Counted from the first letter of the stretch, positions 3,930 to 40,592 are shown. The stretch: 64,000 nucleotides of DNA from a bacterium (GCA_024694145.1 JAILKD010000036.1:7066-71065), one strand, 5' to 3'. Notes: generated by a model from the sequence alone, not told the origin. A program made the numbers and translations.

Positions 3930-3950
3930 AATTAATTCCCCCAAATTAAT

Positions 3951-4778: not shown

Positions 4779-4783
4779 AATTA

Positions 4784-5425: not shown

Positions 5426-5426
5426 A

Positions 5427-10367: not shown

Positions 10368-10993
10368 AAGTTTTCCTCCATTTCTTTTAAAATCTTAGAA
10401 ATTTCTTCATATTTTGTTTTAATAGATACTTTATTAACAATAACTCTAGCTGATAAGTCACATACACTCTCAATTACCTCTAGCCCATTTTCAACTAGTG
10501 TTTTGCCACTTTCAACAATATCAACTATACAATCAGCTAGTCCAATTACTGCCCCTAGTTCAACTGAACCATTAAGTTTAATAATTTCAACCTTTTTATT
10601 TTTAGATTCAAAATACTTCTTAGCAATATTAGGATATTTTGTTGCAACTCTAATTTGTTCGCCACCCATAATTAATTCTTTTTTAGATGGGAAACCTGCA
10701 ACACACATTCTACATTTGCCAATATTTAAATCTAAGCACTCATATAAATCTCTATCTTCTTCTAAAATTGTATCATAACCAACAATACCAATATCAGCTA
10801 CACCATAATCAACAAATGTTGGTACATCACTTGGTTTAGATAAGAAAAATGAAAATTTATCATCACTACTATTAAATACTAACTTTCTTGATTCATCTGT
10901 CATATCAACAGGTCTAATATCTAATTTATCTAGTATTTCTAATGTCTTTTTAGCAAGGCGTCCTTTAGCTAATGCAAAAGTTATTCTTGACAT
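10364..10993 (-). CDS. hisG: ATP phosphoribosyltransferase, short form
   Basis: 209-aa short HisG (LAKGRL, DIGIVGYD) lacking the C-terminal regulatory domain, paired with hisZ upstream. Confidence 0.9.
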   Translation of the reverse strand: MSRITFALAKGRLAKKTLEILDKLDIRPVDMTDESRKLVFNSSDDKFSFFLSKPSDVPTFVDYGVADIGIVGYDTILEEDRDLYECLDLNIGKCRMCVAGFPSKKELIMGGEQIRVATKYPNIAKKYFESKNKKVEIIKLNGSVELGAVIGLADCIVDIVESGKTLVENGLEVIESVCDLSARVIVNKVSIKTKYEEISKILKEMEENL

Positions 10994-12138
10994 ATATATT
11001 CACCTTCTTTTAAAGTGTATTTTTTATTATTATCAACATCTATTACAGTTTTAATATTATTAGCTAATGCATAAATAAATGCCTCATTTAAGCTATTTTC
11101 TAAACTTATTAACGAATTATCTTTAACCATTGTTATAAGTAAATCTTTATTAGATGAATATAATAATGTAATATCTTTTTCATAAGTAAGTTTAGTCTTA
11201 CTAATTAAATCATTTACATTAATCGCAAATCCACATGCATCTTTAGGAGCTCCGTAATTAGATATTAAATTATCATATCTACCGCCTTCTAAAATAGGTG
11301 TTCCAACTCCTTTAGTATATCCTTGTAGTGTTATACCTGTATAGTAATTACCAAATGATAAAATAGAAAAATCAAAATATACATTTTTTTCCAAATCGTT
11401 TTTTTCTAGCAAATCATATAATTTTTCTAATTTAGCTAATGTATCAAGAGTTCTTTTACTCTTAATGTTATTCTTAATTTTATTTAATAAATCTTTTTTA
11501 CCAATTGCTTCTACTATTAATGATAATATTTCATAAGAATTCTTATCTAATAATTCTTTAATTTTAACAACATTCTTCTTTTTGATTTCTTCAAGTATTT
11601 TTTCTTTAACATCATTTTTTATATTTAAATCATCTAAATAATTATTAAAGAATTCAGTGGAAGAAATATAAAGTTTATAATCATTTAACACTTTATCTAA
11701 TGATTTAACAGCTAAACTTACTACTTCATAATCTGCATATATTCCACTTGCACCAATTAATTCAACACCTGCTTGTGTGAATTCATGTTGCTTTCCTTGA
11801 TATGCTTTAGGATATCTAAAAGTGTTAGTGATATAACAAAATCTTTGAGGGAAAATGAAATCTTTTGTTTCTGTTGATGCTACTCTTGCTATTGATTTAG
11901 TAACATCACTTCTTAAAGATAATACTTCACCATTCTTATTAATTAATTTATATAAAGTTAAATCTTGCATATTAGTAGTAAAAACATCAGCATATTCTAA
12001 TGTTGGTGTTTCAATTAAATTATACCCACTATTTAAGAATAATTCTTTTAAAATAGTTTCAATTTTGTTTTTCTTTTCCATATCTTTTAAAAGATAATCT
12101 TTTAAACCTTCTGGTGTCTTAATATTTAAGTTATTCAT
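10981..12138 (-). CDS. hisZ: ATP phosphoribosyltransferase regulatory subunit (HisRS paralogue)
   Basis: Class-II aaRS-like core (PEGLKDYL, LRSDVT, GGRYDNL) without an anticodon-binding domain. It is the first gene of the his operon and overlaps hisG. Confidence 0.85.
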   Translation of the reverse strand: MNNLNIKTPEGLKDYLLKDMEKKNKIETILKELFLNSGYNLIETPTLEYADVFTTNMQDLTLYKLINKNGEVLSLRSDVTKSIARVASTETKDFIFPQRFCYITNTFRYPKAYQGKQHEFTQAGVELIGASGIYADYEVVSLAVKSLDKVLNDYKLYISSTEFFNNYLDDLNIKNDVKEKILEEIKKKNVVKIKELLDKNSYEILSLIVEAIGKKDLLNKIKNNIKSKRTLDTLAKLEKLYDLLEKNDLEKNVYFDFSILSFGNYYTGITLQGYTKGVGTPILEGGRYDNLISNYGAPKDACGFAINVNDLISKTKLTYEKDITLLYSSNKDLLITMVKDNSLISLENSLNEAFIYALANNIKTVIDVDNNKKYTLKEGEYICQE

Positions 12139-14931: not shown

Positions 14932-15285
14932 TTATTTAGCAAGCAAAATAATTAGTTTTAATTCATTGATATAATCACTATCAGTTTTTACTTTATAAAT
15001 TAGATTATCACTTATGTTTGTTTGACCTTTGATTGTATTAATAATTTGTTTAATAACATCTTCACTTAATTCTTTTTGTGACTTTATTTTTACTATTGAT
15101 TTAGTATAATCTAAGTAATTATCATTAAGTGCTTCTTTTATACTTTCAACAATTTTCCCATCATTAATTTTAATCTTTATTATTTTTGAATCAACCCCAT
15201 CAATAACATACCCGTAATTTGCTTTGGTGATTGTTGGGAAATCTGAATCATTAAAAAAATCTCTTAACATAAAAAACATAAACAT
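14932..15285 (-). CDS. hypothetical protein upstream of ftsZ
   Basis: ORF with GGAG 10 nt upstream of ATG 15285. No recognisable motifs. Confidence 0.4.
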
Positions 15286-15316
15286 AAGTATCACACTCCA
15301 ATTTGATTATAACATA

Positions 15317-15349
15317 ACAAAAAATAAAAGTGAGGAAAAACCTCACTTT
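15317..15349 (-). terminator. intrinsic terminator ending the T-box operon
   Basis: Minus strand reads AAAGTGAGG-TTTTT-CCTCACTTT followed by TATTTTTTG, overlapping the stop codon of the gamma subunit gene. Confidence 0.8.
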
Positions 15350-15878
15350 AGTCTTTATAATTGTATCCAAGCATAATTGCTTCAATATTTTTTGGAAGTA
15401 AATGTGCTTTTTTAGCAGGTACAACCTTTTTAATACCTTCATTTACTAAATCTAAACTTAACATATTAGTTTTCTTTAATACATAACCAAATAAAACCAT
15501 ATTTGCTAAGCCATGATATCCTTCATCATTTGCAATTTTTGTTGCTGGAATACCAAATGCTCTTTTATCATTAACCTCTTTTTGAATTAATGATGAATCA
15601 TAAATGATAAATCCATCTTTATTAACAGCGTTAATAAATTTTTCTAATGAAGGTAAGTTCATTGGAATTAAAACATCTGGATTACTAACGATTGGTGAAC
15701 CAACTGGGCTATCTGATAGAATAACTGAACAGTTAGCTGTTCCACCACGCATTTCTGGTCCATATGAAGGAAGCCATGATACTTCCTTATTTCCGATTAA
15801 TCCACTGTAAGCAATTAATTTTCCTAAGAATAGGACACCTTGTCCACCAAATCCGGCAATAAGAATCTTATTTTCCAT
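15348..15878 (-). CDS. 2-oxoacid:ferredoxin oxidoreductase, gamma subunit
   Basis: The IAGFGGQGVLFLGK motif is typical of OFOR gamma subunits. Overlaps the beta gene by 1 nt. Confidence 0.85.
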   Translation of the reverse strand: MENKILIAGFGGQGVLFLGKLIAYSGLIGNKEVSWLPSYGPEMRGGTANCSVILSDSPVGSPIVSNPDVLIPMNLPSLEKFINAVNKDGFIIYDSSLIQKEVNDKRAFGIPATKIANDEGYHGLANMVLFGYVLKKTNMLSLDLVNEGIKKVVPAKKAHLLPKNIEAIMLGYNYKD

Positions 15879-16630
15879 TATTTGTTTTCCTCCTTAGTTT
15901 TATCTTTGAATACTCCAAGCGGATAATATGTTTGCATATTATCTTCTAACCACTTTAAAGCATCTTTTGGTTCCATACCCCAGTTAGTAGGGCATGTAGA
16001 TAATACTTCAATTAAAGAGAAACCTTTTTTATTGATTTGGTTTTCAAATGCTTGTTTAATTGCTCTTTTAGCGTTTTTGATATTTTTAACATTGTTTACA
16101 GCAACACGTTCAATATATGCTGCACCATCAATTTCTTTTAACATTTCACAAACTTTTACAGGGTAACCTACAACAGTTACATCTCTACCATATGGAGAAG
16201 TTTGTGTTACTTGGTTAGGTAATGTTGTTGGAGCCATTTGCCCACCAGTCATACCATAAATAGCATTATTAACGAAAATAATTGTAATATTTTCGCCTCT
16301 AGCAGCTGAATGAACTGTTTCAGCAGTACCAATAGCAGCTAAGTCACCATCACCTTGATATGTAAATACTATATTATCAGGTAATGCTCTTTTTAAACCT
16401 GTAGCTACGGCTGGAGCTCTACCATGAGCTGCTTGAACCATATCACAGTTAAAATAATTATATGAGAATACTGAACATCCAACTGATGCAACACCAACAG
16501 TTTTATCAAGAATTCCTAGTTCTTCTAATGCTTCAGCAACTAATCTATGAATAATACCATGAGTACATCCAGGACAGTAGTGAAGTGGTGCATCTGTTAA
16601 TCCTTTTGTTTTTTCAAATACAACAGCCAT
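15878..16630 (-). CDS. 2-oxoacid:ferredoxin oxidoreductase, beta (TPP-binding) subunit
   Basis: CPGCTHGI and GDGD...NNAIYGMTGGQ TPP-binding pattern. Confidence 0.9.
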   Translation of the reverse strand: MAVVFEKTKGLTDAPLHYCPGCTHGIIHRLVAEALEELGILDKTVGVASVGCSVFSYNYFNCDMVQAAHGRAPAVATGLKRALPDNIVFTYQGDGDLAAIGTAETVHSAARGENITIIFVNNAIYGMTGGQMAPTTLPNQVTQTSPYGRDVTVVGYPVKVCEMLKEIDGAAYIERVAVNNVKNIKNAKRAIKQAFENQINKKGFSLIEVLSTCPTNWGMEPKDALKWLEDNMQTYYPLGVFKDKTKEENK

Positions 16631-17688
16631 TATTTTGCACCTCCAATTTCCTTAATTTTAGCTAATACTTCTTCAGGAGATGGGATCATACCACCAGTTC
16701 TACCTACGAAGTAAACTGGTTTAGAACAGTTGATTGCAAGTTTAACATCTTCAATCATTTGTCCCATATTTAATTCTACAGAAATGAATGCTTTAGCTTT
16801 AGCGCTAGCTTTTAGTAACGCATCTTTAGGGAATGGCCATAATGTAATAGGTCTAATTAAACCAGCCTTAATGCCCATCTTTCTAGCTTCAACAATTGCA
16901 TTTTTAGAAACTCTAGCAGCAATACCGAATGCTACGATTACGATATCAGCATCATCCATCATAAATTCTTCATACATTACTTCATCCTTTTCAACTTCAG
17001 CATAGCGTTCATATCTTCTATGATTCCATACTTCTAGTTCTTCTGGAAGTAAGCTTAATGAGTTAATTATATTTCTTCCAGCATGATTTTTAGTACCATT
17101 AGTTGCCCATGGTTTTTCAATTACTGGAATTTTAACATCAGTTAATTGAACTGGTTCCATCATTTGTCCCATAGTACCATCAGCTAAAATCATAGCAGTC
17201 ATTCTATATTTTTCTGCTAAATGGAAACCTTTGAATGTTAAATCATACATTTCTTGTACTGTAGCAGGAGCAAGTACGATTAAATGATAATCACCATGTC
17301 CTCCACCTTTACAAGCTTGAAAATAATCTGATTGAGATGGTTGAATACCACCTAGACCAGGGCCTCCTCTTTGTACGTTAACAACAAGTGCAGGTAGTTC
17401 ACAACCAGCTAAGTAAGAAATACCTTCTTGTTTTAAACTGATACCTGGGCTTGAAGATGATGTCATAACTTTAACACCAGCACTAGCAGCACCAATTACC
17501 ATGTTAATTGCTGCAACTTCACTTTCAGCTTGAAGGAATGTTCCTCCAATTTTTGGCATACGCTTTGCCATATATGCTGCAACTTCTGTTTGAGGAGTTA
17601 TTGGATAACCAAAATAGTGTCTACAACCAGCAGTAATAGCAGCTTCAGCCATTGCCTCGTTACCTTTCATTAATACCTTTTCTGCCAT
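16630..17688 (-). CDS. 2-oxoacid:ferredoxin oxidoreductase, alpha subunit
   Basis: MKGNEAMAEAAITAGCRHYFGYPITPQTE N-terminus typical of KorA/VorA/PorA-type alpha subunits. Confidence 0.9.
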   Translation of the reverse strand: MAEKVLMKGNEAMAEAAITAGCRHYFGYPITPQTEVAAYMAKRMPKIGGTFLQAESEVAAINMVIGAASAGVKVMTSSSSPGISLKQEGISYLAGCELPALVVNVQRGGPGLGGIQPSQSDYFQACKGGGHGDYHLIVLAPATVQEMYDLTFKGFHLAEKYRMTAMILADGTMGQMMEPVQLTDVKIPVIEKPWATNGTKNHAGRNIINSLSLLPEELEVWNHRRYERYAEVEKDEVMYEEFMMDDADIVIVAFGIAARVSKNAIVEARKMGIKAGLIRPITLWPFPKDALLKASAKAKAFISVELNMGQMIEDVKLAINCSKPVYFVGRTGGMIPSPEEVLAKIKEIGGAK

Positions 17689-17696
17689 GTTTTCAC

Positions 17697-17900
17697 CTAC
17701 TTTTCTACCTTAATAACTGTATCAGGACACATTGTTGCACAAAATGCACAGCCAATACATTTATCTTGATCCATCATTTTTACTGGGTTATAACCCTTTT
17801 CATTAATTACATCTGATAAAGCTAAGATTCCTTTAGGACAAGCTGTAATACATAAGCCGCATCCCTTACATCTAGCTTCATTAATAGTTAATTTAGCCAT
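17697..17900 (-). CDS. 2-oxoacid:ferredoxin oxidoreductase, delta subunit (2x[4Fe-4S] ferredoxin)
   Basis: Two CxxCxxCxxxCP motifs (CKGCGLCITACP, CIGCAFCATMCP). Start set to ATG 17900 (AAAGGA RBS upstream) rather than the ORF-track start. Confidence 0.85.
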   Translation of the reverse strand: MAKLTINEARCKGCGLCITACPKGILALSDVINEKGYNPVKMMDQDKCIGCAFCATMCPDTVIKVEK

Positions 17901-17949
17901 AAATAATGTCCTTTCTTTTATAATAATACAATAATTATTATATACCTTT

Positions 17950-18603
17950 TTATACCCATAAACCATAGTTAATTAAATTTAGTGGTAAAATATTTTCTAT
18001 TTTTCCTTCTAAACTCTTAACTAAATCACTTCTAACTGAGGTATATTTAACTTTTAACCCTGTTATTTTTTCAACCTTCTTAGCATAATCTAAGGAATCC
18101 AATATAACACTAGGAGTAGTTTCATTACCTAAATTAGAATTATTAATTATTGCTGTAAATTTAATTCCAGCAACTGCCTCTATTTCATCCATTATTTCTT
18201 TAGTCTCTTCTGGAGTTCTAGTTTCATACCTATATTTGTTTATGATTAAAAACATATCATAATTATTTTCTTTTAGAATTTCATCTCTAAAACGACCTAG
18301 TGCATAAGCACCTCTATCGTCTCCACCAACATCAACAACAGCAAATTTATCTTTTTCTCTAATCATTCTATAACATTCTGGATTCATTGCAGGGCAATCA
18401 ACATTTGTATTTGCATAATCACTTGCGATTAATGGAATATTATTAGCTTCAAGAATATCTTTACCATCAAGTGTTCTAAAATATGGATTAACGATATCTA
18501 AATCATAAACCATAACATTACTTTTAATCATTAAAGCAAAGTTTAAGGCAATATTTGTTTTACCAGTTCCATAATGACCTAAAAACAAATTAACACGTTT
18601 CAT
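17950..18603 (-). CDS. P-loop NTPase, MinD/ParA/Mrp-like (SIMIBI class), function unknown
   Basis: N-terminal Walker A GHYGTGKT and later VVDVGGDD (Walker B-like). Its start overlaps the ilvE stop. Confidence 0.55.
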   Translation of the reverse strand: MKRVNLFLGHYGTGKTNIALNFALMIKSNVMVYDLDIVNPYFRTLDGKDILEANNIPLIASDYANTNVDCPAMNPECYRMIREKDKFAVVDVGGDDRGAYALGRFRDEILKENNYDMFLIINKYRYETRTPEETKEIMDEIEAVAGIKFTAIINNSNLGNETTPSVILDSLDYAKKVEKITGLKVKYTSVRSDLVKSLEGKIENILPLNLINYGLWV

Positions 18604-19667
18604 TATTTTACTTCAACTGTCCAGCCAAATTCATCCTTAACTTTTCCAGTTTGAATACCAGTAATCTTATCATAAAGCATTTGTGATACTGGGCCAATCT
18701 TTCCGTTATTGATTTCGTATTTCTTACCATTAACTTCAATTAAACCAATTGGTGAAATAACAGCAGCTGTACCGCAACCCCAAGCTTCTTCTAGAGTTCC
18801 ATTTTCTACAGCCTTAGTTAATTCTTCAAGTGATAATAATCTTTCAGTTGCTTTAATTCCTTCTTTTTTAAGAATTTCTAAACAGCTTTTTCTTGTAATA
18901 CCAGGTAAGATTGAGCCAAGTAATGCTGGAGTGATAACTTCTCCATTAATCTTAAACATTACGTTCATAGCTCCAACTTCTTCAATGTATTTTCTTTCTA
19001 CACCATCAAGCCATAGAACTTGTGAATAACCTTTTTCTTCAGCCTTTTTACCAGCTCTAGAACTTGCTGCATAGTTTCCACCACACTTAGCGAAACCAGT
19101 ACCTCCACGTACTGCTCTTACATCTTCAGTTTCAATTAAAATTTTAACTGGATTTAATCCTTCTTTATAGTAGCTTCCAACTGGTGAAAGAATAATTACA
19201 AATGTTGAATGATGAACTGTATGAACACCTAGTGTTTCATCATTACCAAATAGGAATGGTCTAATATAAAGACTTGTTCCTTTTGCTGTCGGAATCCAAT
19301 CTTTATCAATTTCTACAAGCTTTTTAATAGCTTCAACGAAATCTTCTTCAGGAATTTCAGGTAAGCAAAGTCTATCAGCACTATTATTCATTCTCTTAGC
19401 ATTTTCATAAGGTCTAAATAATTGAATTCTTCCATCTTCTGTTAGATATGCTTTCATACCTTCAAAAATTTCTTCTCCATAATGAAGAACAGTTGATGCT
19501 GGTGATAAGCTTAAGTTTCCATAAGGAACTATTCTAGCATTATGCCAACCATTTTCATAATCGTGATCCATAATAAACATGTGATCAGTAAAGAATTTAC
19601 CAAATCCTAGTGAATTACTATCGGGTTTAGCTTTTGGATTTTCATTTTTAATGATTTTAATTTCCAT
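18603..19667 (-). CDS. ilvE: branched-chain amino acid aminotransferase (class IV, long form)
   Basis: FGKFFTDHMF, HYGEEIFEGMKAY, GGTGFAKCGGNY and GITR motifs. Start set to ATG 19667 after GAGGTGG. Confidence 0.85.
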   Translation of the reverse strand: MEIKIIKNENPKAKPDSNSLGFGKFFTDHMFIMDHDYENGWHNARIVPYGNLSLSPASTVLHYGEEIFEGMKAYLTEDGRIQLFRPYENAKRMNNSADRLCLPEIPEEDFVEAIKKLVEIDKDWIPTAKGTSLYIRPFLFGNDETLGVHTVHHSTFVIILSPVGSYYKEGLNPVKILIETEDVRAVRGGTGFAKCGGNYAASSRAGKKAEEKGYSQVLWLDGVERKYIEEVGAMNVMFKINGEVITPALLGSILPGITRKSCLEILKKEGIKATERLLSLEELTKAVENGTLEEAWGCGTAAVISPIGLIEVNGKKYEINNGKIGPVSQMLYDKITGIQTGKVKDEFGWTVEVK

Positions 19668-19679
19668 AATTTCCACCTC

Positions 19680-22181
19680 TTAAATTAATTTATTTTTTAT
19701 TTTTTCTTCAGCCTCTTCACGCATTTTGTATTTTAAGATTTTTCCAGCTGCGTTCATAGGGAAGGAAGTAACTAAATCAATATATCTTGGTACTTTATGA
19801 CGAGCTATATTTTTAATCATATAATCTCTTAGCTCATCAGTAGTCATAGTTTCTCCATCTTTTACGATGACATAAGCATAAACTTCTTCACCATATTTTT
19901 CATCAGGTACACCAACAACTTGTACATCAGATACCTTTGGATAAGTATAAATAAAGTCTTCAAGTTCTTTTGGATATATGTTTTCTCCACCACGAATAAT
20001 CATATCTTTAAGTCTACCTGTAATTTTATAATTCCCATCAGGTCGTCTTAAAGCTAAATCACCTGTATGAAGCCATCCATCTTTATCAATTGCTTGAGCA
20101 GTTTCTTTAGGCATTTTATAATAGCCTTTCATAATATTATAACCCCTAGCAACGAATTCTCCAACAGTATTATCAGGTAAATCCTTATTAGTTTCAGGAT
20201 CTACTATTTTACATTCAATATTTGGAAGTGGTCCACCAACAGTTTCAACTCTAACATCAATTGGGTCTTCTGTAGTACTCATAGTACAACCAGGGCTTGC
20301 CTCAGTTTGACCATAAACTATTGTGATTTCCTTCATATTCATCTTTTCTACGACTTCTCTCATTACAGCAACAGGGCAAGGAGAACCTGCCATAATACCT
20401 GTACGCATATAACTGAAATCTACTTTAGGGAAGTATTCATGACTAAGCATTGCGATAAACATTGTTGGTACACCATGGAAGCATGTAATCTTTTCTTGAT
20501 TAATGCACTCTAAGGCAGGACGTGGTGAATAATAAGGTAGTGGATAGATCGATACACCATGAGTCATAGATGCAGTCATAGCAAGAACCATTCCAAAGCA
20601 GTGGAACATAGGTACTTGAATCATCATTCTATCTGCAGTTGATAGATCCATTCTATCTCCAATACATTTACCATTATTAACAACGTTATAATGTGTTAAC
20701 ATAACTCCCTTAGGGAATCCTGTAGTACCTGATGTATATTGCATATTACATACATCATGAATATCTACTTCTTTAGCTCTTCTTAACACTTCACTTAAAG
20801 GTATGTTTTTCCCTAAATCTAGCGCTTCTTTAAATGTCATAGAACCTGGATTTTTAAACCCAACTGTTATAACATGACGTAAGAAAGGAAGTGCTTTTGC
20901 ATGCATCTTTTCACCTAATTTTAAGCTTGCAAGTTCAGGACATAATTCATTAATAATTTCAGCATAATTAGTCTTTTGATAGCTTTCAGTTAATACTAAA
21001 ATTTTAGTATCAGATTGACGTAATAAGTATTCAATTTCATGAATCTTATATGCTGTATTAACTGTAACTAATATAGCACCAATTTTTGTTGTTGCCCAAA
21101 AAGCAATGTACCATTCTGGAACATTACTTGCCCAAACGGCAACCTTATCACCATGCTTAACACCTAAAGCAATTAAAGATTTTGCAAAATTATTTACATC
21201 ATCTCTAAATTCTTTATATGTTCTAGTATAGTCAAGTGTTGAATATTTAATAGCAATTTGATCAGGGAAATTTTCAACCATTGTATCTAAGACATCAGAA
21301 AACGTCTTTTCGATTAATGCTTCTTTTTTCCAAACAAATTTACCAGTATTAGATTTATTACTGAATAAATTTGATTTCCAACTTGGTTTATCTTTCAAAA
21401 AAGACATATAGTTAACAAATTGAGGGAATACAATATCAGCACCTAAAACTGAATCAATCCATTGAGGACGCATTTCAAGTGATAAATATCCTTCATAGTT
21501 AATACTTCTTAGTGCAGCAAATACATCTTTAATTGGAAGATCTCCTTCACCTAAAAGCACATAATTAACTTTACCATCAACTATTTTTGAATCTTTAACA
21601 TGAACATGCTTTACATAAGCACCAAAGTTTTTAATAGTGTCATTTACACTTTCATGAGCAAATTGGTAAGTATGGTGAAAATCCCATACTGCAGCCAAAT
21701 TATCATCAGCAAAACTATCAAGCATTTTCTTAATTCTTAAAGTATCAGCAAAAACACCCATAGTTTCAAGAAGTAATGTAATGCCGTTTTTTGTTGCAAA
21801 ATCTAATGTTTCATTAATAATAGATTTAACTAATTCATCTTCTTCTTCATTAGATAATTCAGTAACATGCATTGCATGAATTCTAATATATTCACATCTT
21901 AAATTCTTAGCTAAAATAATTAGTTCTTTAATTTCAGCAATTGTTTCATTTTTCTTTAGTGGATCTGCAAGGTTTCCTGTAGAATCAATACAAGAAATAG
22001 AAACATTGTTTTCGTTTAAATATCTTAATGTTCTTAAGACATTTTCATCACTAAACGGAGCATGTTCTTGGAAGCTTTTTGCATTATGAATTTCAATGCC
22101 TTCAATTCCAAGAGATTTGGCAATGGAAACTAATTCATTTAAATTAGAATTCCAACCATTTGTAGAGAAAGATAATTTCAT
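19680..22181 (-). CDS. fusion protein: xylose-isomerase-like TIM-barrel domain + AMP-dependent acyl-CoA synthetase/ligase
   Basis: The N-terminal ~270 aa (MKLSFSTNGW...IEGIEIH...HVHVKD...LSLE) look like the sugar-phosphate isomerase/epimerase TIM barrel. The C-terminal ~550 aa carry YTSGTTGFPKGVMLTH, GQTE, GWLHTGD and GKILK adenylate-forming motifs. Confidence 0.75.
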   Translation of the reverse strand: MKLSFSTNGWNSNLNELVSIAKSLGIEGIEIHNAKSFQEHAPFSDENVLRTLRYLNENNVSISCIDSTGNLADPLKKNETIAEIKELIILAKNLRCEYIRIHAMHVTELSNEEEDELVKSIINETLDFATKNGITLLLETMGVFADTLRIKKMLDSFADDNLAAVWDFHHTYQFAHESVNDTIKNFGAYVKHVHVKDSKIVDGKVNYVLLGEGDLPIKDVFAALRSINYEGYLSLEMRPQWIDSVLGADIVFPQFVNYMSFLKDKPSWKSNLFSNKSNTGKFVWKKEALIEKTFSDVLDTMVENFPDQIAIKYSTLDYTRTYKEFRDDVNNFAKSLIALGVKHGDKVAVWASNVPEWYIAFWATTKIGAILVTVNTAYKIHEIEYLLRQSDTKILVLTESYQKTNYAEIINELCPELASLKLGEKMHAKALPFLRHVITVGFKNPGSMTFKEALDLGKNIPLSEVLRRAKEVDIHDVCNMQYTSGTTGFPKGVMLTHYNVVNNGKCIGDRMDLSTADRMMIQVPMFHCFGMVLAMTASMTHGVSIYPLPYYSPRPALECINQEKITCFHGVPTMFIAMLSHEYFPKVDFSYMRTGIMAGSPCPVAVMREVVEKMNMKEITIVYGQTEASPGCTMSTTEDPIDVRVETVGGPLPNIECKIVDPETNKDLPDNTVGEFVARGYNIMKGYYKMPKETAQAIDKDGWLHTGDLALRRPDGNYKITGRLKDMIIRGGENIYPKELEDFIYTYPKVSDVQVVGVPDEKYGEEVYAYVIVKDGETMTTDELRDYMIKNIARHKVPRYIDLVTSFPMNAAGKILKYKMREEAEEKIKNKLI

Positions 22182-23566
22182 TAATTATTCTCCTCATCAT
22201 AAACTATCTTATTAACGGCTTGAATGTATGCTCTAATACTTGCTCCATTAATATCAGTTGATACACCACTACCAGAATATAGTTTACCATTATATCTTAA
22301 TTTAACTAGTGCTTCACCCATAGCTTCAGCACCTTCAGTAGCAGCTTTAATTTTAAAATCATCAAGTTCAAAGCTTCTACCAATAATTTGTTCGATTGCT
22401 TTAAATGAAGCATCAATTGGTCCATCACCATAAGCAATACCAAATAATTCTTCTTTTCCTTTATATAAAGTAATAGTTGAAGTAGATTTAATCTTATTTC
22501 CACTATTAATTACAAAGCTATCTAACTTATATGTTTGAGGAACTTGCATAGCTACATTAGCAATAATTACATCAAGTTCTTTTAATTTAATTTGTGCTTT
22601 TTTATTAACAGTATTTAAGAATGTTTCATAAACTGCATTTTGATCAGTTACACTTAAATCATAACCAAGTGTTTTAATAATTTCATTTAATTCTTCTTCT
22701 TTAACATTCTTATCTAATAGTTTAACATCAGATACTGTTTCATTTTTTGTAATAGATTCTTTATTAACATCATGTCCACTAAGAATTGAATCAATTGAAT
22801 CAATAACCTTAGTAGCATCAACATTCATTTCAAACTTATATTTATTACCTAAATTTTTAATAATAGTACAAATATTTCCTAGTTTAGGAAGTTCTTTTCC
22901 AAATATTGTAGTTTTTACAAAATCAACATCATTAATAGATGAAATTACTGAGGCACTACCAAGTGATAATTGGTTAGAGCATCCAATACCTAATTTATTA
23001 GTTTTTGTGTTTGCTTTAATGTTTTTGATAAATGCACTAAATTCGTTAGGTAAGGCAATTCCAGCACTATCCATTACTGATACATAATCAGCATCGATTG
23101 CTGCATTAATTGCATCATATAAATATTTTTCTTCAGCACGAGTAGCATCTAAGAAGATTGCTTCTACTTTTACATTTAAACCTTTTGCATAGCTAATTAA
23201 TTCTTTAATTGTTTCTAGCATCTTTTCAGGCTTCTTATGATATAAATATTCCATTTGCATTACTGTAGATGGAAATTCAATAGCAATAATTGAATCTTTA
23301 CTATTTTTAACTACATCATATGCTAAATCAATAGATTCTTTAGTAGCTACTGCACTACAGCTAATCTTAGAATTTTTAATAAATGTTGAAATAGTTCTAA
23401 ATAAGATGGAGTCAGTTTTAGGATCTTCTACTGGTCCTACACCAATAATATCTACTTTGAGGTCGTCTAAATGTCTAGCTATTTCCAGCTTTTCCTTGAA
23501 ACTCATTTCTAACTCTTTAGTTGTCAAGTTCTTTCTTAAAGTTTCATCGCAAATAATTACTTTCAT
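22181..23566 (-). CDS. 2-isopropylmalate/citramalate synthase-like protein with degenerate catalytic site and retained LeuA-type C-terminal regulatory domain
   Basis: The N-terminus ICDETLRKNLT replaces DTTLRDGEQ, and IGCSNQLSLG replaces the HxHNDxG metal site. The C-terminus GDGPIDASFKAIE...GVSTDINGASIRAYIQAVNKI matches the LeuA dimerisation/allosteric domain. Confidence 0.65.
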   Translation of the reverse strand: MKVIICDETLRKNLTTKELEMSFKEKLEIARHLDDLKVDIIGVGPVEDPKTDSILFRTISTFIKNSKISCSAVATKESIDLAYDVVKNSKDSIIAIEFPSTVMQMEYLYHKKPEKMLETIKELISYAKGLNVKVEAIFLDATRAEEKYLYDAINAAIDADYVSVMDSAGIALPNEFSAFIKNIKANTKTNKLGIGCSNQLSLGSASVISSINDVDFVKTTIFGKELPKLGNICTIIKNLGNKYKFEMNVDATKVIDSIDSILSGHDVNKESITKNETVSDVKLLDKNVKEEELNEIIKTLGYDLSVTDQNAVYETFLNTVNKKAQIKLKELDVIIANVAMQVPQTYKLDSFVINSGNKIKSTSTITLYKGKEELFGIAYGDGPIDASFKAIEQIIGRSFELDDFKIKAATEGAEAMGEALVKLRYNGKLYSGSGVSTDINGASIRAYIQAVNKIVYDEENN

Positions 23567-23593
23567 TTTGATATTCCTCCTTTTATTATTTTT

Positions 23594-24388
23594 CTACAAA
23601 TTAAGTAATTTTTTTATATTTTTACTTAAGATTAATTCGTTTTCTTCATCCGTTAATCCTAAGGAAAATAACCTTTCTAATTCTTCTTTAGCATCCCACA
23701 TAGGATAATCTGTGCCAAAGAAAAATCTATCTGCACCAAATTTTTTTATTAATTGTACTGCTTTATATTTTTCTAAGAAGTATAGAGAAGATGATGTATC
23801 AAAATATACATTATCATATTTTAAATTTTCATATTCTCTATAATTTCCCCAAGTTGAATACCCACCGAAGTGAGCTGCAATACATTTTAAATCTTTAAAT
23901 TTATTAGCTACTCTAACTAAACGTTCTTGGCTTGAATAGTCATATCTTTTATCACCCATATGGAACAATATAGGTAATTTGCCACTAGCAGCTTTATAAA
24001 TATTATCTAGTTTTGGATCATCTATATAGAACTTTTGAAAATCTGGATGTAATTTAATTCCTTTAAATCCATTATCTATTGCAAACTTTATTTCACTATC
24101 TATTTCATCAATTGTTAAATCAGGATGAAGAGTAATAAAGCCAATAAATTCTTTATGTGCTTTTAATTGTTCTAATATAAATGTATTAATTGAATGGACT
24201 TGATGTGGAGTAGTTGCAACTGAATGCACTAGATAACGTGATATTCCAGCCTTTTTTCCAACTTTTAAAAGTCCATCAACGGTTCCATCATAATCCATTG
24301 GGATACCATAGAAATCACCAATTGCCTTGCTTGCTTTTAAAGCAATTTTATCTGGATAAATATGAACATGTGCATCAATGATTTCCAT
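23594..24388 (-). CDS. metal-dependent amidohydrolase-superfamily TIM-barrel protein (Amidohydro_2-like)
   Basis: IIDAHVHIYP N-terminal HxH motif, with later KLHPDFQ, FHMGD, AAHFGG and FGTDYP. Start set to ATG 24388 after AGGTGA. Confidence 0.7.
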   Translation of the reverse strand: MEIIDAHVHIYPDKIALKASKAIGDFYGIPMDYDGTVDGLLKVGKKAGISRYLVHSVATTPHQVHSINTFILEQLKAHKEFIGFITLHPDLTIDEIDSEIKFAIDNGFKGIKLHPDFQKFYIDDPKLDNIYKAASGKLPILFHMGDKRYDYSSQERLVRVANKFKDLKCIAAHFGGYSTWGNYREYENLKYDNVYFDTSSSLYFLEKYKAVQLIKKFGADRFFFGTDYPMWDAKEELERLFSLGLTDEENELILSKNIKKLLNL

Positions 24389-24397
24389 AAAGATCAC

Positions 24398-26716
24398 CTA
24401 CTTATTACTCATTTTTCTTAAATCTGTACGTTTAATCTTACCACTAATTGTCTTTGGTAATTCATCAAAGAATTCAATAATTCTTGGATATTTATATGGT
24501 GCTGTATTAGTCTTTACATATTGTTGAATTTCTTTCTTCAAATCTTCTGACTTTTCTTTACCAGGCACTAATACGATATTAGCTTTAACAACTTGACCAC
24601 GAATTGGATCAGGTGCACCTGTAACAGCACATTCAAGTACATATGGTAATTCCATGATGACACTTTCAATTTCAAATGGCCCAATTCTATATCCACTTGA
24701 TTTGATAACATCATCAATTCTACCTACATACCAATAATAACCTTGTTCATCATGCCATGCTGTATCACCTGTATGATACATTCCATCATGCCATGCTTCT
24801 TTTGTTTTTTCAGGATTGTTATAATATTCTTTAAATAATCCACAAGGAATTCTTTTATCTGTTCTAATAATAATTTCACCAGTTTCACCGTCTTTACATG
24901 GATTACCATCTAAATCAACGATATCTACATCATATAGTGGACTTGGCTTACCCATAGAACCTCTAACGATTGTTGCACCAACGAAGTTACCGACTACTGC
25001 TGTTGTTTCAGTTTGTCCAAATGCTTCTACTAGATTTACACCTGTAGCTTTAATCCATTGTGAATATACTTCAGGGTTAAGTGCTTCACCAGCAATAGCA
25101 GCATATCTAACTGAACTTAAATCATATTTTGATAGATCTTCTTTGATGAAGAATCTATAAATTGTTGGAGGTGCACAGAATGTTGTGATATTGTATTTGG
25201 CAAACATTGGTAGGACATGTGAACTATCGAATTTATCAAAGTCATACGTGAATACTCCAGCTTCACATAACCATTGTCCATAAAGTTTGCCCCATAATGA
25301 CTTACCCCAACCTGTTTCACTCATTGTAAAGTGAAGTCCATCAGGTACTACATTTTGCCAGTATTTAGCTGTAATGAAATGTCCTAGTGGATATTTATGA
25401 CAGTGTGCTGTAAGTTTTGGATTTCCTGTAGTTCCACTTGTGAAAAACATTACCATTAAGTCATTTCCACATGCTGATGTTTCTTTTCTATCATAAACAT
25501 CAGAGTATTTTAAGAATTCATTATTATAATCATGCCATCCAGCAGGAATTGGATCATTTATTGTAGTTGCTGCTACTTTAATTAATTTGCAGCCAACTTC
25601 TTTCTCTGCTTCATCAATTCTATCTGTTACATCATCATCATCTGTAGCAATAATTGCTTTAACTCCTGCAGCTTTAAATCTATATACATAATCATGAACC
25701 ATTAAAAGATTTGTTGCTGGAATTGCAATTGCTCCAATTTTATGTAGAGCCATCATAGCATACCAGAAATGATAATGTCTTTTAAGTACAAGCATTACTC
25801 TATCACCTTTTTGAATTCCTAGTGATTCAAGATAGTTTGCTGTCATACTTGAATATCTAGAAATATCTCCAAATGTGAATGTTCTTTCATTAAAGTTCTT
25901 ATCTACATATAACATTGCTCTTTTGTTTGGCTTAGTTTTAGCTAATTCATCAACTATATCAAAAGCAAAGTTAAATTTATCTTCATTTTTAAATGATATA
26001 CCGTTAATTACTCCTTTTTCATCTAAAGTAGTATCAATCCACTTTTCATAAATAGGATCTTTAAGGTGTGCAGCATCTGTATTTGTTAATGATGAAGTTT
26101 GAGTAATACGCTTCATACTTGCTAAACCTGACTTATCAGGATCTACTACAAAGGCATAGAATACTAAATCTTCACCACCAAGTGCTGTTTCATCATGAGG
26201 AATTGATGAATCATGATAAATTGAATCTCCTTCATGAAGGATCTCAACATCATCACCAATAACCTTTTTCATTGTACCTTTAACAACGATATTTAATTCT
26301 TGTCCTCTATGAGTAACCATTTTCTTTGGTCCCATAAGAGCTTCTTCATTATAAGGAATAGTTACTAAGAAAGGCTCAACTAAACGGTTTTTAAATAGTG
26401 GAGCTAAGTGTTCATAAACAACACCATGCTTTCCGTAAATATTCATTCCTTCTTCTTTTCTAGTTAGTGTGTAATCCGCAAGTTTTGGAGTTCTACCATC
26501 AATAATTGCTGTAATTTCAATATTGCAGATTCTTGCAAACTTATAGATGAAAGAGAAAGTAATATCACTTCTACCTTCTTCTAAAGCCTGGTAATCTTCT
26601 AAGTCCATATCAGTCATTGCAGCAACTTCTTTATCAGTAAGCCCACAATCTTCTCTAACAGACTTAATACGACACGCGATGTCTTCAATTTCTTTTGTCA
26701 GTTTGTTAATAATCAT
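24398..26716 (-). CDS. fusion protein: XRE-type HTH + cupin domain + medium-chain (ACSM/MACS-type) AMP-forming acyl-CoA synthetase
   Basis: aa ~15-70 form an HTH (CGLTDKEVAAMTDMDLEDYQALEEGRSD). aa ~110-195 form a cupin (THRGQELNIVVKG...GDSIYHDSSIPH). The rest carries FFTSGTTGNPK, ETGWGK, GQTE, YHTGD, SSGYRIGPFEIES and GKIKR. Confidence 0.8.
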   Translation of the reverse strand: MIINKLTKEIEDIACRIKSVREDCGLTDKEVAAMTDMDLEDYQALEEGRSDITFSFIYKFARICNIEITAIIDGRTPKLADYTLTRKEEGMNIYGKHGVVYEHLAPLFKNRLVEPFLVTIPYNEEALMGPKKMVTHRGQELNIVVKGTMKKVIGDDVEILHEGDSIYHDSSIPHDETALGGEDLVFYAFVVDPDKSGLASMKRITQTSSLTNTDAAHLKDPIYEKWIDTTLDEKGVINGISFKNEDKFNFAFDIVDELAKTKPNKRAMLYVDKNFNERTFTFGDISRYSSMTANYLESLGIQKGDRVMLVLKRHYHFWYAMMALHKIGAIAIPATNLLMVHDYVYRFKAAGVKAIIATDDDDVTDRIDEAEKEVGCKLIKVAATTINDPIPAGWHDYNNEFLKYSDVYDRKETSACGNDLMVMFFTSGTTGNPKLTAHCHKYPLGHFITAKYWQNVVPDGLHFTMSETGWGKSLWGKLYGQWLCEAGVFTYDFDKFDSSHVLPMFAKYNITTFCAPPTIYRFFIKEDLSKYDLSSVRYAAIAGEALNPEVYSQWIKATGVNLVEAFGQTETTAVVGNFVGATIVRGSMGKPSPLYDVDIVDLDGNPCKDGETGEIIIRTDKRIPCGLFKEYYNNPEKTKEAWHDGMYHTGDTAWHDEQGYYWYVGRIDDVIKSSGYRIGPFEIESVIMELPYVLECAVTGAPDPIRGQVVKANIVLVPGKEKSEDLKKEIQQYVKTNTAPYKYPRIIEFFDELPKTISGKIKRTDLRKMSNK

Positions 26717-26754
26717 TTTTCTTTTCTCCTTTTTTATATATTAGTACTATATAT

Positions 26755-26997
26755 AAAAAAACGTCTCAAAATATCATTTGAGACGAGATAACCCGCGGTA
26801 CCACTCAATTTATGTATTTATATACATCCCTTTAGGATCCAACAATCCCTTTGCTTTAACGCAGCTATACGGAGCTTCCTAATAGAATATTCGTTCAGAG
26901 GCCCTACTCAAAAGCGATGGCTAAATGAATGACTCCTCGCTAATTTACACCAACCATTAGCTCTCTGTAGATTTATCATTCTAGCGTCTTTATCACG
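26755..26997 (-). promoter_or_regulatory. T-box riboswitch leader (tRNA-sensing transcription attenuator)
   Basis: The minus strand shows Stem I with AGAGAG and a GGTTGGTGTAA distal-loop motif, and an F-box-like GCGTTA. A Stem III hairpin ATGTAT/ATACAT precedes the T-box sequence AAATTGAGTGGTACCGCGGG (26811-26792). The terminator CGTCTCAAA-N6-TTTGAGACG plus T7 (26785-26755) has a 5' arm that also forms the antiterminator. Confidence 0.9.
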
Positions 26998-27023
26998 GCA
27001 TTTATTATATATATACTACATTC

Positions 27024-27052
27024 ATAATAGCACTTGAAAAATAATAATTCAA
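27024..27052 (-). promoter_or_regulatory. sigma-70-type promoter of the T-box operon
   Basis: Minus strand has TTGAAT (27052-27047), a 17-nt spacer and TATTAT (27029-27024), about 30 nt upstream of Stem I. Confidence 0.55.
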
Positions 27053-31572: not shown

Positions 31573-31833
31573 AATAGATACCTCCTTTTTTTACTAATAC
31601 CTATATGATTATATCATATAATTTATTTTTTTCCTATATTTTTTTTAATTTGAAATCTATTTTTCATTATTTTTTCAAAATGTTAAAAAAAGGCTAGTTT
31701 ACGCAATTATCTAGACTTTTATATTAAACAATTTAAAAAATATGATAGAATAATTGTTTAATTATAGTTCAAAAGAAAAAACAATTTTAACATAAAATGT
31801 TAAAACATAATAGTAATTTATGCATAAAAATTG

Positions 31834-31839
31834 TATAAT
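31834..31839 (+). promoter_or_regulatory. candidate -10 box for the coiled-coil gene
   Basis: TATAAT lies 25 nt upstream of the ATG at 31864. No convincing -35 element. Confidence 0.35.
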
Positions 31840-31863
31840 AGATATGATTGGAGGTGTATTAAT

Positions 31864-34800
31864 ATGGCTGGTATAAATGACTATATTTCAAAAAACGCAA
31901 ATGAACTAGTTGAAGAATTTTTAACTATCCTAAATGAATTAATTCAAGACCATAACACCTCTACTTCTAAGACAAGAGATAACCTTTTAAACTGTATAGA
32001 AAGCAACAAAAAGAATAACCTTAATTCTAAAAAAAGATGTGATGAAACATTACTTGATTTAGATAATCAAGAAAAAGAATTAAGCCCAAAATATGCAGTT
32101 GAAAATGATAAAATTCAAGAAAAGAATGAAGCGAGAATTGAAGCTAATAATAACTCAATTGCTGAATATAAGAAAATTTATAAAGATGGAATTAATGAGA
32201 TAAATAAAAAATATGATTTAGTTGTTAATGAAGAAAATGATAGATTAGAAAACCTTCAACATTTAAACAGAAAAGAGTTACAACACTATCTACAACAAAT
32301 AGATGCTGAAGAAATAACTCAAAGAAAAGAATTAGAATCAACTATTGAAGAATTGACTAAAAAGATTAGAAAAACACAAGAATCATTAATTATAAATATA
32401 GAAGATTTAAGACACGATTATTTAATAAAATCATCTGGATTTAACGATGATATGCGTAAGACTAGAAATGAATTTATTGATAAAGAAAAAGAACTTAGAG
32501 CAATATCTAGGGAAGAGACTTCTACTCACCATAAGCAAATTGAAGAATTAACAAAAGAAATTTCTAATAAACAAAAAAATATATTAAATACATTTAGTAC
32601 TAATTTTATGGATTTATCAAATTTAGATGATAAAATCTTACTTGAAAATGCTAACGATCAAATTAAATTACTTACTTTACAAGCTAAAAACAAAGAGAAA
32701 AAAAGAATTCTTGAAATTCAAAAGGATAACGATTTATTATTAGAAAAGGAAAAAGATAATACAAAAATCAGAAATCTAAAGATTATTAAGCAAGATATTG
32801 ATAACCAAAATACAACAAGAATTAATAGAGAAAATGTATACTCTTTGATGCGTATTTCTGAATTTGAAAAAGATTCACTTTTAAGTGATGCTATTAAGGA
32901 AAACAAAATTAGTGGTATTTCACTTGATTCAAATGCTAAAATCAATAGATTACACGAAAAACTAAATGATAAGAAAAATGACTTAGATTTTTTCTTAAAA
33001 CGTTTTGATTTGCTTAGAAACTCTAAAAAAAGAACTATTGAATTATATTCACATTTATACGATGTTACTACAACACTAGTATTAGATTTAAATCAATTGG
33101 AACGTGAATATGTTTTAGAACAACAAAAAGCTATTTTAGATAAGAAAATAGAAGATATTAATTATTTAAATAAGGTTAGCGAATATGAATGTAATAAAGA
33201 ATTAGCTATTAATAATTTAAAGTTAGAATTAGAAACTATAGAGTTTGAAATACAAAAAATTAATACTTCATTTGATCATGCTGTATTTAAAACAAGATCA
33301 TCATATAACACTGAAAAAACTCGTATTGAGCACATTTATCAGATGTTTGATTCTAAATATAATACTGAATTAAAAGCTCTAGAAACAGATATTACATTTA
33401 TTTATGCCATAATTGAAAAACTAAAAGAAGAAATAATAAGAACAACTTCTACTGCTATTGATGAGCAAAAGAAGGAAAAAGAATCAACAGATAAAATAAC
33501 TGCATTCTATAAAATGATGACTTCTGAATTTAATTTCATGAAGGAACAAGTAGATAATTATTATAGTAATAAAGATTTAAGATTCACTCCAGATGTAGAT
33601 GAAATAATTAATGACTACATAAAAGCTTCAATTGATAAAAAAAGAGCTTTTGAAAGTGAATTCAAAGAATTAACAAACAAAACACAACTAATTGAAACTG
33701 AAATAAAAGAAATTGAAAATGATATATTTATGCTTGAAGCAAATAGAAAATCATTTATTGAAAAATCAAAGAGAGCATATGATGATAAATATGAACTTAG
33801 AGAATTTGATGAACAAATTGAAGAAAAAGCATTTAGACTTCATATACTTCGTTTACGTTTAAAATCTCAAGCAAAAGAAATGTCAAATCTTGAAAGTGAA
33901 ATGCTTAGAATTGATGAAGGTAAAGATGTATTTGCTAAAAAAGAAAACAAGAGACTATATGAACTTGATTTTGATAATACTTACTTTAATAAGTATGAAG
34001 ACTTACAAGAGACTATTTCAACAATGTTTAATCAGCTATTAACACTTGCTGAATCTTCACTTGAAAAAAATGATTTAAAATCTCTTTATTCATTTAGCTC
34101 AAGTGCCATTAAACATCTTAACAAAGCCACTTCTTCTATTAAATCATTCCATTTTGATACTATTAATGAATATAAAAATGAATTCAAGAAAATCGCAAAG
34201 GTTTGTGCAAACAACATTGAAAAGGAAAAGAAAACATTTGAGATTAATCTTGATATGATTAATAGAGAACGTGATATTGCTATTGATGATGAACAATCAA
34301 AAATAGTAATTGCAAAGAAAAGCTCTAGGGACTTAGAAGTAAAATATAATGTTGATATAATTAACATTAAGCAAAAATCAGATGAAAGACTATCAACAAT
34401 AGATAATGAGCTTAATGATTATAATATCAGATACGGCTTAAATGTTGCTGCACTAGAATCTAATGCAAGTTCTATGAAAAGCTATTATGATGATGCTATA
34501 GCTAAAGAGACAAAAGATAGAGTAGCAACTCTTGCTAATCTTTATAAAGAGCGTAAAATTAATAAGCTTTTATATGAAGATAACTTAGGTAAACTAAGAT
34601 CTAATTATAATATTGAAAAAGAAAAGAATATTATTCAAGCTAAGACTAGAATAAATAACGTATTAAGGCAATATATGCAAAAATGTATGGAATTTGATAT
34701 ACAGTTAAAGAGTCTTGATGATGCACTTAGAAAATCAAGTGCTGAATGTAATAGTGCAATAATTGATTCAGATGTTCAATTAAATGACTTTATCAAGAAA

Positions 34801-40586: not shown

Positions 40587-40592
40587 ATTTTA

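Follow-up and report, generated by a model that had tools for sequence, protein, structure and literature searches.

The 64,000-nucleotide stretch of bacterial DNA considered here (GCA_024694145.1, JAILKD010000036.1:7066-71065), hereafter the window, carries a T-box leader followed by ten closely spaced genes, g1 to g10. They code for two acyl-coenzyme A (acyl-CoA) synthetases, a 2-oxoacid:ferredoxin oxidoreductase (OFOR), a branched-chain aminotransferase, an amidohydrolase, a LeuA-like protein and a P-loop NTPase. We propose that this operon serves the synthesis of isoleucine, leucine and perhaps valine from branched short-chain acids. The leader and the ten genes all lie on the minus strand, and their features, numbered over the whole window, are the following.

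27024-27052 (-): promoter-like site, TTGAAT, a 17-nt spacer and TG-TATTAT (extended -10), placed ~20 nt before the leader; a start ~10-15 nt before the T-box would fit
26776-27005 (-): T-box leader (Rfam RF00230), Stem I with a K-turn (UGA...GAG), AGAGA and a distal GGUUGGUG loop, and an antiterminator with UGGUACCGCG
26916-26918 (-): specifier AUC (Ile), followed by G and then by the CUUU strand of the basal helix, as placed by the Infernal alignment, RNAfold and the register of homologous leaders
26800-26803 (-): UGGU of the T-box bulge, pairing with the tRNA 3' ACCA (discriminator A); UGGU is found in all related leaders
26762-26785 (-): leader terminator hairpin, a 9-bp stem and then TTTTTTT (seven U), competing with the antiterminator
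24398-26716 (-): g1, helix-turn-helix (HTH, XRE)-cupin-MACS-type acyl-CoA synthetase, 772 aa (Pfam HTH_3/HTH_19, Cupin_2, AMP-binding, AMP-binding_C)
23594-24397 (-): g2, Amidohydro_2 metal-dependent TIM-barrel protein, hydrolase/decarboxylase-like (PF04909, 102 bits)
22181-23566 (-): g3, HMGL-like barrel without a metal site and LeuA_dimer regulatory domain (Pfam, NCBIfam, alignments)
19680-22181 (-): g4, xylose-isomerase-like TIM barrel (residues 1-265) fused to an ANL acyl-CoA ligase (about 290-833) (Pfam)
18603-19676 (-): g5, branched-chain aminotransferase IlvE, class IV, type II (NF009897, TIGR01123)
17950-18603 (-): g6, divergent SIMIBI-class P-loop NTPase (weak Pfam CbiA match, invariant motifs)
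17697-17900 (-): g7, OFOR delta subunit, a 2x[4Fe-4S] ferredoxin of 67 aa from an internal ATG (Fer4 families, twice); the open reading frame (ORF) extends to 17966
16630-17688 (-): g8, OFOR alpha subunit, VorB type (POR_N, PFOR_II; NF005507)
15878-16630 (-): g9, OFOR beta subunit, binding thiamine pyrophosphate and Fe-S (TPP_enzyme_C; CxxC and GDGD..NN motifs)
15348-15878 (-): g10, OFOR gamma subunit (PF01558, 131 bits)
15327-15349 (-): operon-end intrinsic terminator, a 9-bp stem and then the T-run TATTTTTTGT; the palindrome scores on the plus strand too

The ten ORFs abut one another from 26716 down to 15348. Gene junctions range from -1 to +27 nt, with ~49 nt before the delta subunit gene if g7 starts at 17900, the probable start according to the 67-aa call in an independently annotated relative of 96% identity. 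The widest of the other gaps, between g2 and g3, measures 27 nt and thus leaves no room for a second leader between these genes. A Shine-Dalgarno sequence and the g1 ATG at 26716 follow 3' of the leader terminator. Terminator-like matches within the operon are weak stems of 5-6 bp and nothing stronger. The strong terminator that a first-pass annotation had assigned to 15317-15349 corresponds to the 9-bp hairpin at 15349-15327, the longer span taking in the T tail. Both flanks are unrelated to the operon, with tgt upstream and an ORF of 120 aa plus ftsZ downstream. The single promoter of the same annotation is present and correctly positioned, but cannot be told statistically from background: promoter-like matches in this AT-rich stretch number 72, against 77.5 +/- 9.4 in shuffled sequences. 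Its assignment at 27052-27024 is plausible from position. Palindromes near it that were considered as an operator for the HTH-cupin domain are all AT-rich and of low complexity, and this candidate was dropped. Judged from their sequence, the ten genes form one transcription unit under the control of a T-box riboswitch.

T-boxes switch genes on when their cognate tRNA is uncharged. The leader at 26776-27005 matches RF00230 over the full model (1-219) with 112.2 bits (gathering score 93, E 5.5e-24), in agreement with the T-box that had been noticed ahead of the ten minus-strand genes, and is the one T-box that Rfam detects in the 64-kb window. Its conserved antiterminator sequence is GAGUGGUACCGCGGG. 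The 5' arm of the leader terminator is the 3' strand of the antiterminator, CGUCUCAAA being common to both. Bacterial tRNA-Ile, tRNA-Leu and tRNA-Val normally carry discriminator A, and the UGGU bulge therefore cannot tell the three apart. The Infernal alignment leaves AGCCAUCG unpaired ahead of the CUUU strand of the basal helix, and RNAfold leaves C-AUC-G unpaired in the window leader. Homologous leaders share the same register (3 bases, 1 base, a 4-nt stem, 1 base, GAG) and read GUA-G, CUC-G/A or AUC-G/A/C at this place. Register and fold together fix the specifier, which the first-pass annotation had left to this alignment, as AUC (Ile), and rule out the alternatives GCC, CCA and CAU. The leader is predicted to read uncharged tRNA-Ile and to act by antitermination.

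The domain identities proposed beforehand for all ten products agree with Pfam and NCBIfam. The g5 protein passes both IlvE equivalog cut-offs (NF009897, 486.5 bits for a cut-off of 307; TIGR01123, 414.6 bits for 250), and the OFOR alpha subunit passes that of VorB (NF005507, 545.6 bits vs 399) within a four-subunit delta-alpha-beta-gamma architecture recognized by Pfam.

The ligase domain of g1 aligns with MacsMa of Methanosarcina acetivorans (PDB 3ETC) with 654 bits across 523 residues. The TAKYWQNV motif is identical in both proteins and, like the other ANL core motifs (SGTTG, GQTE, HTGD and GK), is intact in g1. MacsMa prefers 2-methylbutyrate as substrate; it also adenylates propionate, but thioester formation is completed preferentially with 2-methylbutyrate (PMC10455477). 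The top NCBIfam family of g1 is MbcS (NF047394), whose equivalog it is not, as its 428 bits fall far under the cut-off of 850. Gene g1 probably codes for a 2-methylbutyrate CoA ligase, possibly active also on isobutyrate. Its HTH-cupin part is joined to the ligase domain in the window copy and at many other loci; in 12 relatives (L001, L002, L005, L007, L019, L026, L030, L039, L040, L061, L082 and L083) it forms a separate ORF of 183 aa directly before a short g1 (~560 aa). This split and fused pattern suggests that the HTH-cupin is a DNA-binding or ligand-sensing partner of the ligase.

The second ligase, in g4, has NF009233 as its best NCBIfam family (679 bits, under the cut-off), and its ANL core motifs are invariant in 79 orthologues. 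The preceding TIM domain (PF01261, 118 bits) gives an AlphaFold2 model with a pLDDT of 90, which Foldseek matches to IolI (1i60) with a TM-score of 0.81; the nearest folds are IolI, AsbF, Art22 and ketose 3-epimerases. These matches span the isomerase/epimerase/dehydratase class and provide no specific lead on function. The window protein and most orthologues keep the Glu-Asp-His-Glu ligand pattern (E139/D167/H194/E236). About 16 of the 54 g4 copies linked to g3 carry D167N together with E236V/I/T, so catalysis by the TIM domain is not needed in every case, and the domain may have a structural or regulatory role. It belongs to a small subfamily (76 representatives at E <= 1e-30); there are stand-alone relatives at about 30% identity. 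Copies of g4 found alone form a distinct subtype. A search for their partner among the neighbouring genes gave no conserved candidate, the neighbours being cation transporters and unrelated genes.

Immediately upstream, g3 has the two-domain build of LeuA and CimA but had been called catalytically dead, a diagnosis that the alignments bear out. Compared to Listeria LeuA, DTTLRDGEQ is changed to CDETLRKNLT, HCHDD to GCSNQ and EDATR to LDATR, such that the three metal ligands and the catalytic Glu are all replaced in the window copy (RD to RK, HxH (HCH) to GxS (GCS), ED to LD). None of 54 orthologues has the canonical residues at the Asp and His-x-His positions, which vary; the Glu of EDATR is kept in 4 of them, and about half have L or V there, as in the LDATR of the window. 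The protein stays under the cut-offs of all LeuA/CimA equivalogs in NCBIfam (17 of 17 related models, the best with 234.8 bits vs 532). Its LeuA_dimer domain, on the contrary, is well preserved: PF08502 matches with 106 bits over profile positions 2-130 of 131, the GDGPIDA (G-D/N-G-P-x-D-A) and TDI..AS..AY..A.NK motifs are retained, and mean pairwise identity across orthologues is 69% vs 40% for the barrel. The distance from the g3 stop to the g4 start is -4 to +5 nt in most of 53 loci.

The g2 amidohydrolase keeps its HxH..H..H..D metal motif in 26 orthologues and its gene usually adjoins g3-g4; the nearest PDB entries, from which a role was sought, are all uncharacterised proteins. The g6 NTPase has the invariant motifs GHYGSGKT, DLDIVNPYFR, DVGGDDRGA and NNSNLG, and its gene sits ahead of the OFOR genes in every locus that carries them. 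Its AlphaFold2 model (pLDDT 87) finds with Foldseek generic SIMIBI proteins only (ATPase-type HypB, signal recognition particle GTPases, FlhF, MipZ, MinD-type) at TM-scores of 0.5-0.6. A NifH-like ATP-driven reductase that feeds low-potential electrons to the OFOR was rejected on account of this generic fold and of the two Cys of the window protein, which are unconserved in the 33 or 23 aligned homologues. An Mrp/ApbC-type Fe-S carrier was discarded likewise, g6 having no CxxC and only weak matches to P-loop proteins in the PDB. As a guess, g6 might be an NTPase for assembly or maturation of the OFOR.

Full-length homologues of g4 number in the thousands, with 58-96% identity, and every named one comes from Clostridia. 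A scan of one genome per species detected the g4 family in at least 595 species-level genomes. Eighty loci were kept for comparison, mostly from rumen and gut metagenome-assembled genomes (MAGs) of Ruminococcus, Acutalibacteraceae, Oscillospiraceae and Lachnospiraceae, but also from Anaerobacterium chartisolvens DSM 27016 and a complete Dehalobacter genome. The ten families of the window recur together in many orders when these loci are searched by tblastn and ORF-level blastp, for example g3 g4 g5 g6-g10 [HTH-cupin] g1, g3 g4 g2 g1 g6-g10 g5, or g1 g6-g10 g5 g3 g4 g2. Gene g3 accompanies g4 in 54 loci, the OFOR accompanies g6 in 31 and all families are present in 10, counts that are lower bounds as many contigs are short. 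Clustering of all flanking ORFs yielded a single extra recurrent family, the HTH-cupin of 183 aa; no canonical ilv or leu gene is recurrent in the flanks of the 80 loci. The members that had been described as extra and unexplained are indeed there, but they are conserved parts of a widespread system rather than oddities of this genome.

The related T-boxes follow the same genes. A total of 55 T-box cores occur in 82 sequences, each just upstream of a cluster gene and on its coding strand, and Rfam confirmed every related leader submitted to it. Their specifiers are limited to Ile (AUC), Val (GUA) and Leu (CUC, rarely CUG). Leu specifiers precede g3 in 20 loci and a lone g4 in 9, Val (GUA) specifiers precede g1 in 7 loci, and Ile (AUC) specifiers precede g1 in 6, to which L008 and the close relative L081 add two more. 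The exception is L022, with a Leu specifier before g1 and all genes in one operon. Loci with more than one leader display the pairing within one genome. In L010, L018 and L021 a Leu T-box precedes g3-g4-g2 and an Ile T-box precedes g1-g6-OFOR-ilvE; in L008 two g1 paralogues stand in tandem, an Ile T-box preceding the first and a Val T-box the second, after which come g6, the OFOR genes and ilvE; L027 and L078 likewise carry a pair of leaders. When the ligase domains are placed in a neighbour-joining tree, the Ile-labelled and Val-labelled g1 form separate sister clades, and the window g1 branches below both.

Specifier and ligase type thus go together: the TIM/AMP-ligase has Leu, and the two MACS-type clades have Ile and Val. 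Two modules are recognized. Module A consists of g1 (HTH-cupin fused or split), g6, the VorB-type OFOR and IlvE, and has Ile or Val T-boxes; module B consists of g3, g4 and often g2, and has Leu T-boxes. The window and its relative of 96% identity (an ENA metagenome contig) fuse both modules behind one Ile leader. The locus had been viewed beforehand as one T-box unit that supplies an amino acid. It is a T-box-gated set of genes, probably for branched-chain amino acids (BCAAs), but one built of two modules that are regulated separately in most relatives, not a unit for a single amino acid. The modules also meet in L001-type loci, where a single Leu T-box drives g3, g4, ilvE, g6 and the OFOR genes together. 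These operons tie g4 to the OFOR route, and since Leu T-boxes there drive g4 along with the OFOR and IlvE, isovaleryl-CoA is the expected product of its ligase domain, probably a Leu-linked isovalerate-CoA ligase.

A few related loci have additional features. In L082 (222-7908), azlC-azlD, of a family for branched-chain amino acid transport/export, lie just upstream of g3, and Cys_Met_Meta_PP and HTS (methionine synthesis) are inserted between g4 and ilvE. A cobalamin riboswitch is found in L073 (12609-12798) directly downstream of a lone g4 controlled by a Leu T-box. The Rfam match to STnc490, an enterobacterial Hfq-binding small RNA, in L027 (13373-13486, 68 bits), a Clostridia MAG, is probably spurious or a contig-end artefact.

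Taken with the gene identities, this arrangement makes it very probable that the operon converts branched short-chain acids to Ile, Leu and perhaps Val by CoA activation, reductive carboxylation and transamination. The g1 product would activate 2-methylbutyrate, perhaps isobutyrate, to its CoA thioester, and the g4 ligase domain would activate a leucine precursor, most likely isovalerate. The VorB-type OFOR (g7-g10) would then carboxylate the acyl-CoAs with reduced ferredoxin and CO2 to 2-oxoacids, which IlvE (g5) would transaminate to Ile, Leu and Val. The RNA element, the gene identities, the conserved modules and the match of specifier to gene are observed; which acids are used, which way the OFOR runs and what the accessory proteins do we infer. 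The sequence from acid to acyl-CoA, 2-oxoacid and BCAA had already been suggested for the window; it gains support from specifiers restricted to Ile, Val and Leu, from their tracking of the ligase, from the MacsMa match of g1 and from the VorB and IlvE cut-offs. Reductive carboxylation of 2-methylbutyrate is an accepted Ile route in methanogens (PMC2812497). As noted at first sight, no classical ilv or leu family occurs among the window ORFs scanned, which are most of those of 100 aa or more, the ORF of 1541 aa at 51017-55642 being left out.

The Ile specifier would also suit a route in which ligase and OFOR make 2-oxobutyrate from propionate (propionyl-CoA + CO2) and feed classical IlvBNCD enzymes encoded elsewhere. 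Propionate is adenylated by MacsMa (PMC10455477). An Ile route from propionate is reported in Clostridium sporogenes. The preference of MacsMa for 2-methylbutyrate in thioester formation speaks against such a route, and propionate would leave the Val T-boxes of the sister g1 clades unexplained. The ilvBNCD genes adjoin none of the 80 loci and IlvE is co-transcribed with the OFOR. We hold this route to be improbable.

Even less credible is that the pathway runs in the oxidative direction, with IlvE and OFOR degrading BCAAs to branched acyl-CoAs, or that the ligases provide branched acyl-CoA primers for membrane fatty acids, like MbcS of Staphylococcus aureus. OFORs can work in both directions, VOR-type enzymes yield branched acids in proteolytic clostridia, and MbcS is the closest NCBIfam family of g1. 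Induction by an uncharged tRNA would make it senseless, though, to degrade the scarce amino acid, and AMP-forming ligases conserve no energy in catabolism. Neither phosphotransacylase/kinase nor fab genes are recurrent in the 80 loci, and, taken one ligase at a time, the specifiers match the BCAA. Control by starvation and the use of AMP-forming ligases are suited to synthesis and not to breakdown, and for this reason the anabolic direction of the proposed pathway is favoured.

Several points weigh against the proposed conversion of branched acids. The OFOR beta, gamma and delta subunits match in NCBIfam only generic or 2-oxoglutarate-type families, all under cut-off, and the nearest solved structures to the alpha subunit are 2-oxoacid and 2-oxoglutarate enzymes; its substrate range is deduced from the alpha family and gene context. 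Many g1-type leaders score 85-94 bits, mostly just under the Rfam gathering score (E about 1e-18 locally). In the window a Leu-linked module lies behind an Ile T-box, and leucine starvation alone would not induce the operon; either basal read-through combined with allosteric control suffices, or Ile and Leu become limiting jointly in this lineage. Finally, g2, g3, the g4 TIM domain and g6 are conserved yet superfluous to a simple three-step scheme, which needs five to six proteins and leaves four further conserved domains. The chemistry of module B may go beyond isovalerate activation.

This last point gives weight to an alternative that keeps the rest of the pathway but takes g3-g4-g2 for a multi-step salvage of another leucine-related precursor to isovaleryl-CoA or 2-oxoisocaproate, with the TIM domain as isomerase or dehydratase and g2 as hydrolase, hydratase or decarboxylase. 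It would account for the presence under Leu T-boxes of three conserved proteins, four domains in all, when a single ligase would do, for the retained E139/D167/H194/E236 and the IolI/AsbF/epimerase-like fold of the window TIM domain, and for the amidohydrolase metal motif of g2. But D167 and E236 are lost (N; V/I/T) in about 16 of the g3-linked g4 orthologues, many g3-g4 loci lack g2, a lone g4 under a Leu T-box is common, and g3 has no catalytic residues. With no nameable candidate substrate either, we regard such a salvage route as unlikely, though less so than the propionate and oxidative routes.

The better conserved regulatory domain of g3, its translational coupling to g4 and the preceding Leu T-box suggest, tentatively, that it is a leucine-sensing partner of g4 derived from LeuA. 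The C-terminal allosteric domain of LeuA and CimA serves feedback inhibition by Leu or Ile. A more elaborate version, for which the odds are slightly poorer, is that g3 is a leucine sensor taken over from de novo synthesis that binds g4 and exerts end-product feedback on the ATP-consuming first step of salvage, with the Leu T-box of a former leuA still ahead of it and the TIM domain as the docking or transducing part. A feedback module and its riboswitch would then have been transplanted together from a biosynthetic to a salvage pathway. In databases g3 is annotated as '2-isopropylmalate synthase', as 'regulatory domain-containing protein' or as 'hypothetical', g4 as 'AMP-binding protein', and g6 as 'MinD-like' or as 'hypothetical'. 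The first of these names would falsely imply de novo leucine synthesis.

The proposed chemistry is that of the methanogen anabolic 2-oxoisovalerate:ferredoxin oxidoreductase (VorABC) combined with MacsMa, to which g8 (VorB) and g1 (MacsMa-like) correspond. Unlike the methanogen enzymes, the window system is bacterial and groups these genes in one operon with IlvE, a T-box, an HTH-cupin, a P-loop NTPase, a second unrelated TIM-ligase and a pseudo-LeuA. To our knowledge, the T-box, HTH-cupin, P-loop NTPase, TIM-ligase and pseudo-LeuA are not known from archaeal systems. The regulation resembles that of the Bacillus subtilis ilv-leu operon and of leuA T-boxes, where charging of BCAA tRNAs gates BCAA supply genes by antitermination. 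A CUC Leu specifier ahead of a leuA-type gene is common to the known leuA T-boxes and to g3 in the relatives; a Leu T-box before leuA is described in Geobacter (PMC2700814). The difference from ilv-leu is that the genes here would serve salvage and reductive carboxylation rather than de novo synthesis, that the 'leuA' is a pseudoenzyme and that one Ile specifier stands over both modules. In its two-domain HMGL-like barrel plus LeuA_dimer build and its kept regulatory motifs g3 is like LeuA and CimA, from which it differs by the missing metal ligands, the scores under the equivalog cut-offs and the translational coupling to an acyl-CoA ligase. As for g1, MbcS of S. aureus activates 2-methylbutyrate and isobutyrate (PMC10026030); it feeds membrane fatty-acid synthesis, has no HTH-cupin and is not described as T-box controlled.

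The physiology has a long history. It has been known since the 1960s that fibre-degrading bacteria of rumen and gut depend on branched short-chain acids, from which they form Leu, Ile and Val by carboxylation; Allison and Bryant reportedly found that ruminococci and their relatives carboxylate isovalerate, 2-methylbutyrate and isobutyrate, respectively, to these amino acids. Many of the related loci come from rumen MAGs of Ruminococcus, Acutalibacteraceae and Oscillospiraceae, in line with those organisms. That type of work gave labelling patterns but no genes. A packaged, tRNA-sensing salvage operon was thought to be uncharacterised, and the full-text literature search agrees: no description was found of the cluster or the logic of its T-boxes, nor of the pseudo-LeuA or of the fusion of TIM domain and ligase, a brief mention in the comparative T-box study of Vitreschak et al. 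2008 or in RegPrecise being possible. Pathway, enzyme families and riboswitch class are known, while the way the genes are packaged, the regulon with its three specifiers and the accessory proteins appear to be new. Gene sets of this kind, present in many Clostridia of rumen and gut, may account for the branched-acid requirement of such bacteria. They offer a concrete and widespread set with a readable logic, one T-box specifier per ligase, which makes a sixty-year-old nutritional observation genetically testable. It could improve the prediction of auxotrophy and cross-feeding in microbiome models and is relevant to isoacid feed supplements for ruminants. The pseudo-LeuA, TIM-ligase, HTH-cupin-ligase and OFOR-linked P-loop NTPase may harbour new biochemistry or regulation.

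The remainder of the window has other genes of amino acid metabolism. A complete his operon occupies 3951-12138(-) with hisZ, hisG, hisD, hisC, hisB, hisH, (hisA), hisF, hisIE and a PHP-type histidinol phosphatase, and argG lies at 620-1852; given these two, the organism is no general amino-acid auxotroph. The valyl-tRNA synthetase gene (43437-46037(-)) overlaps the end of a GNAT acetyltransferase gene (46021-46611). T-box control of valS is frequent in Firmicutes; here no T-box was detected in front of the gene. A ribosomal protein L21 leader (RF00559, 46.7 bits, 37180-37249(-)) precedes rplU and the gene for the Prp protease, and obg follows downstream.

Four ORFs gave no Pfam match at E <= 1e-5: 31831-34920(+) of 1029 aa, 42509-43444(-) of 311 aa, 59419-61107(-) of 562 aa and 14932-15294(-) of 120 aa, the last being the one between the operon terminator and ftsZ. 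Probable surface-protein genes are located at 47777-50919(-), 51017-55642(-) and 55846-57507(-); they comprise two BspA-type leucine-rich-repeat proteins, the unannotated ORF of 1541 aa and a Big_2/VanZ protein. A gene for a GH26 (mannanase-type) enzyme at 2994-3944(-) and a malQ/alpha-amylase/glgB glycogen cluster at 37330-42458(-) fit a plant-fibre-associated gut or rumen organism.

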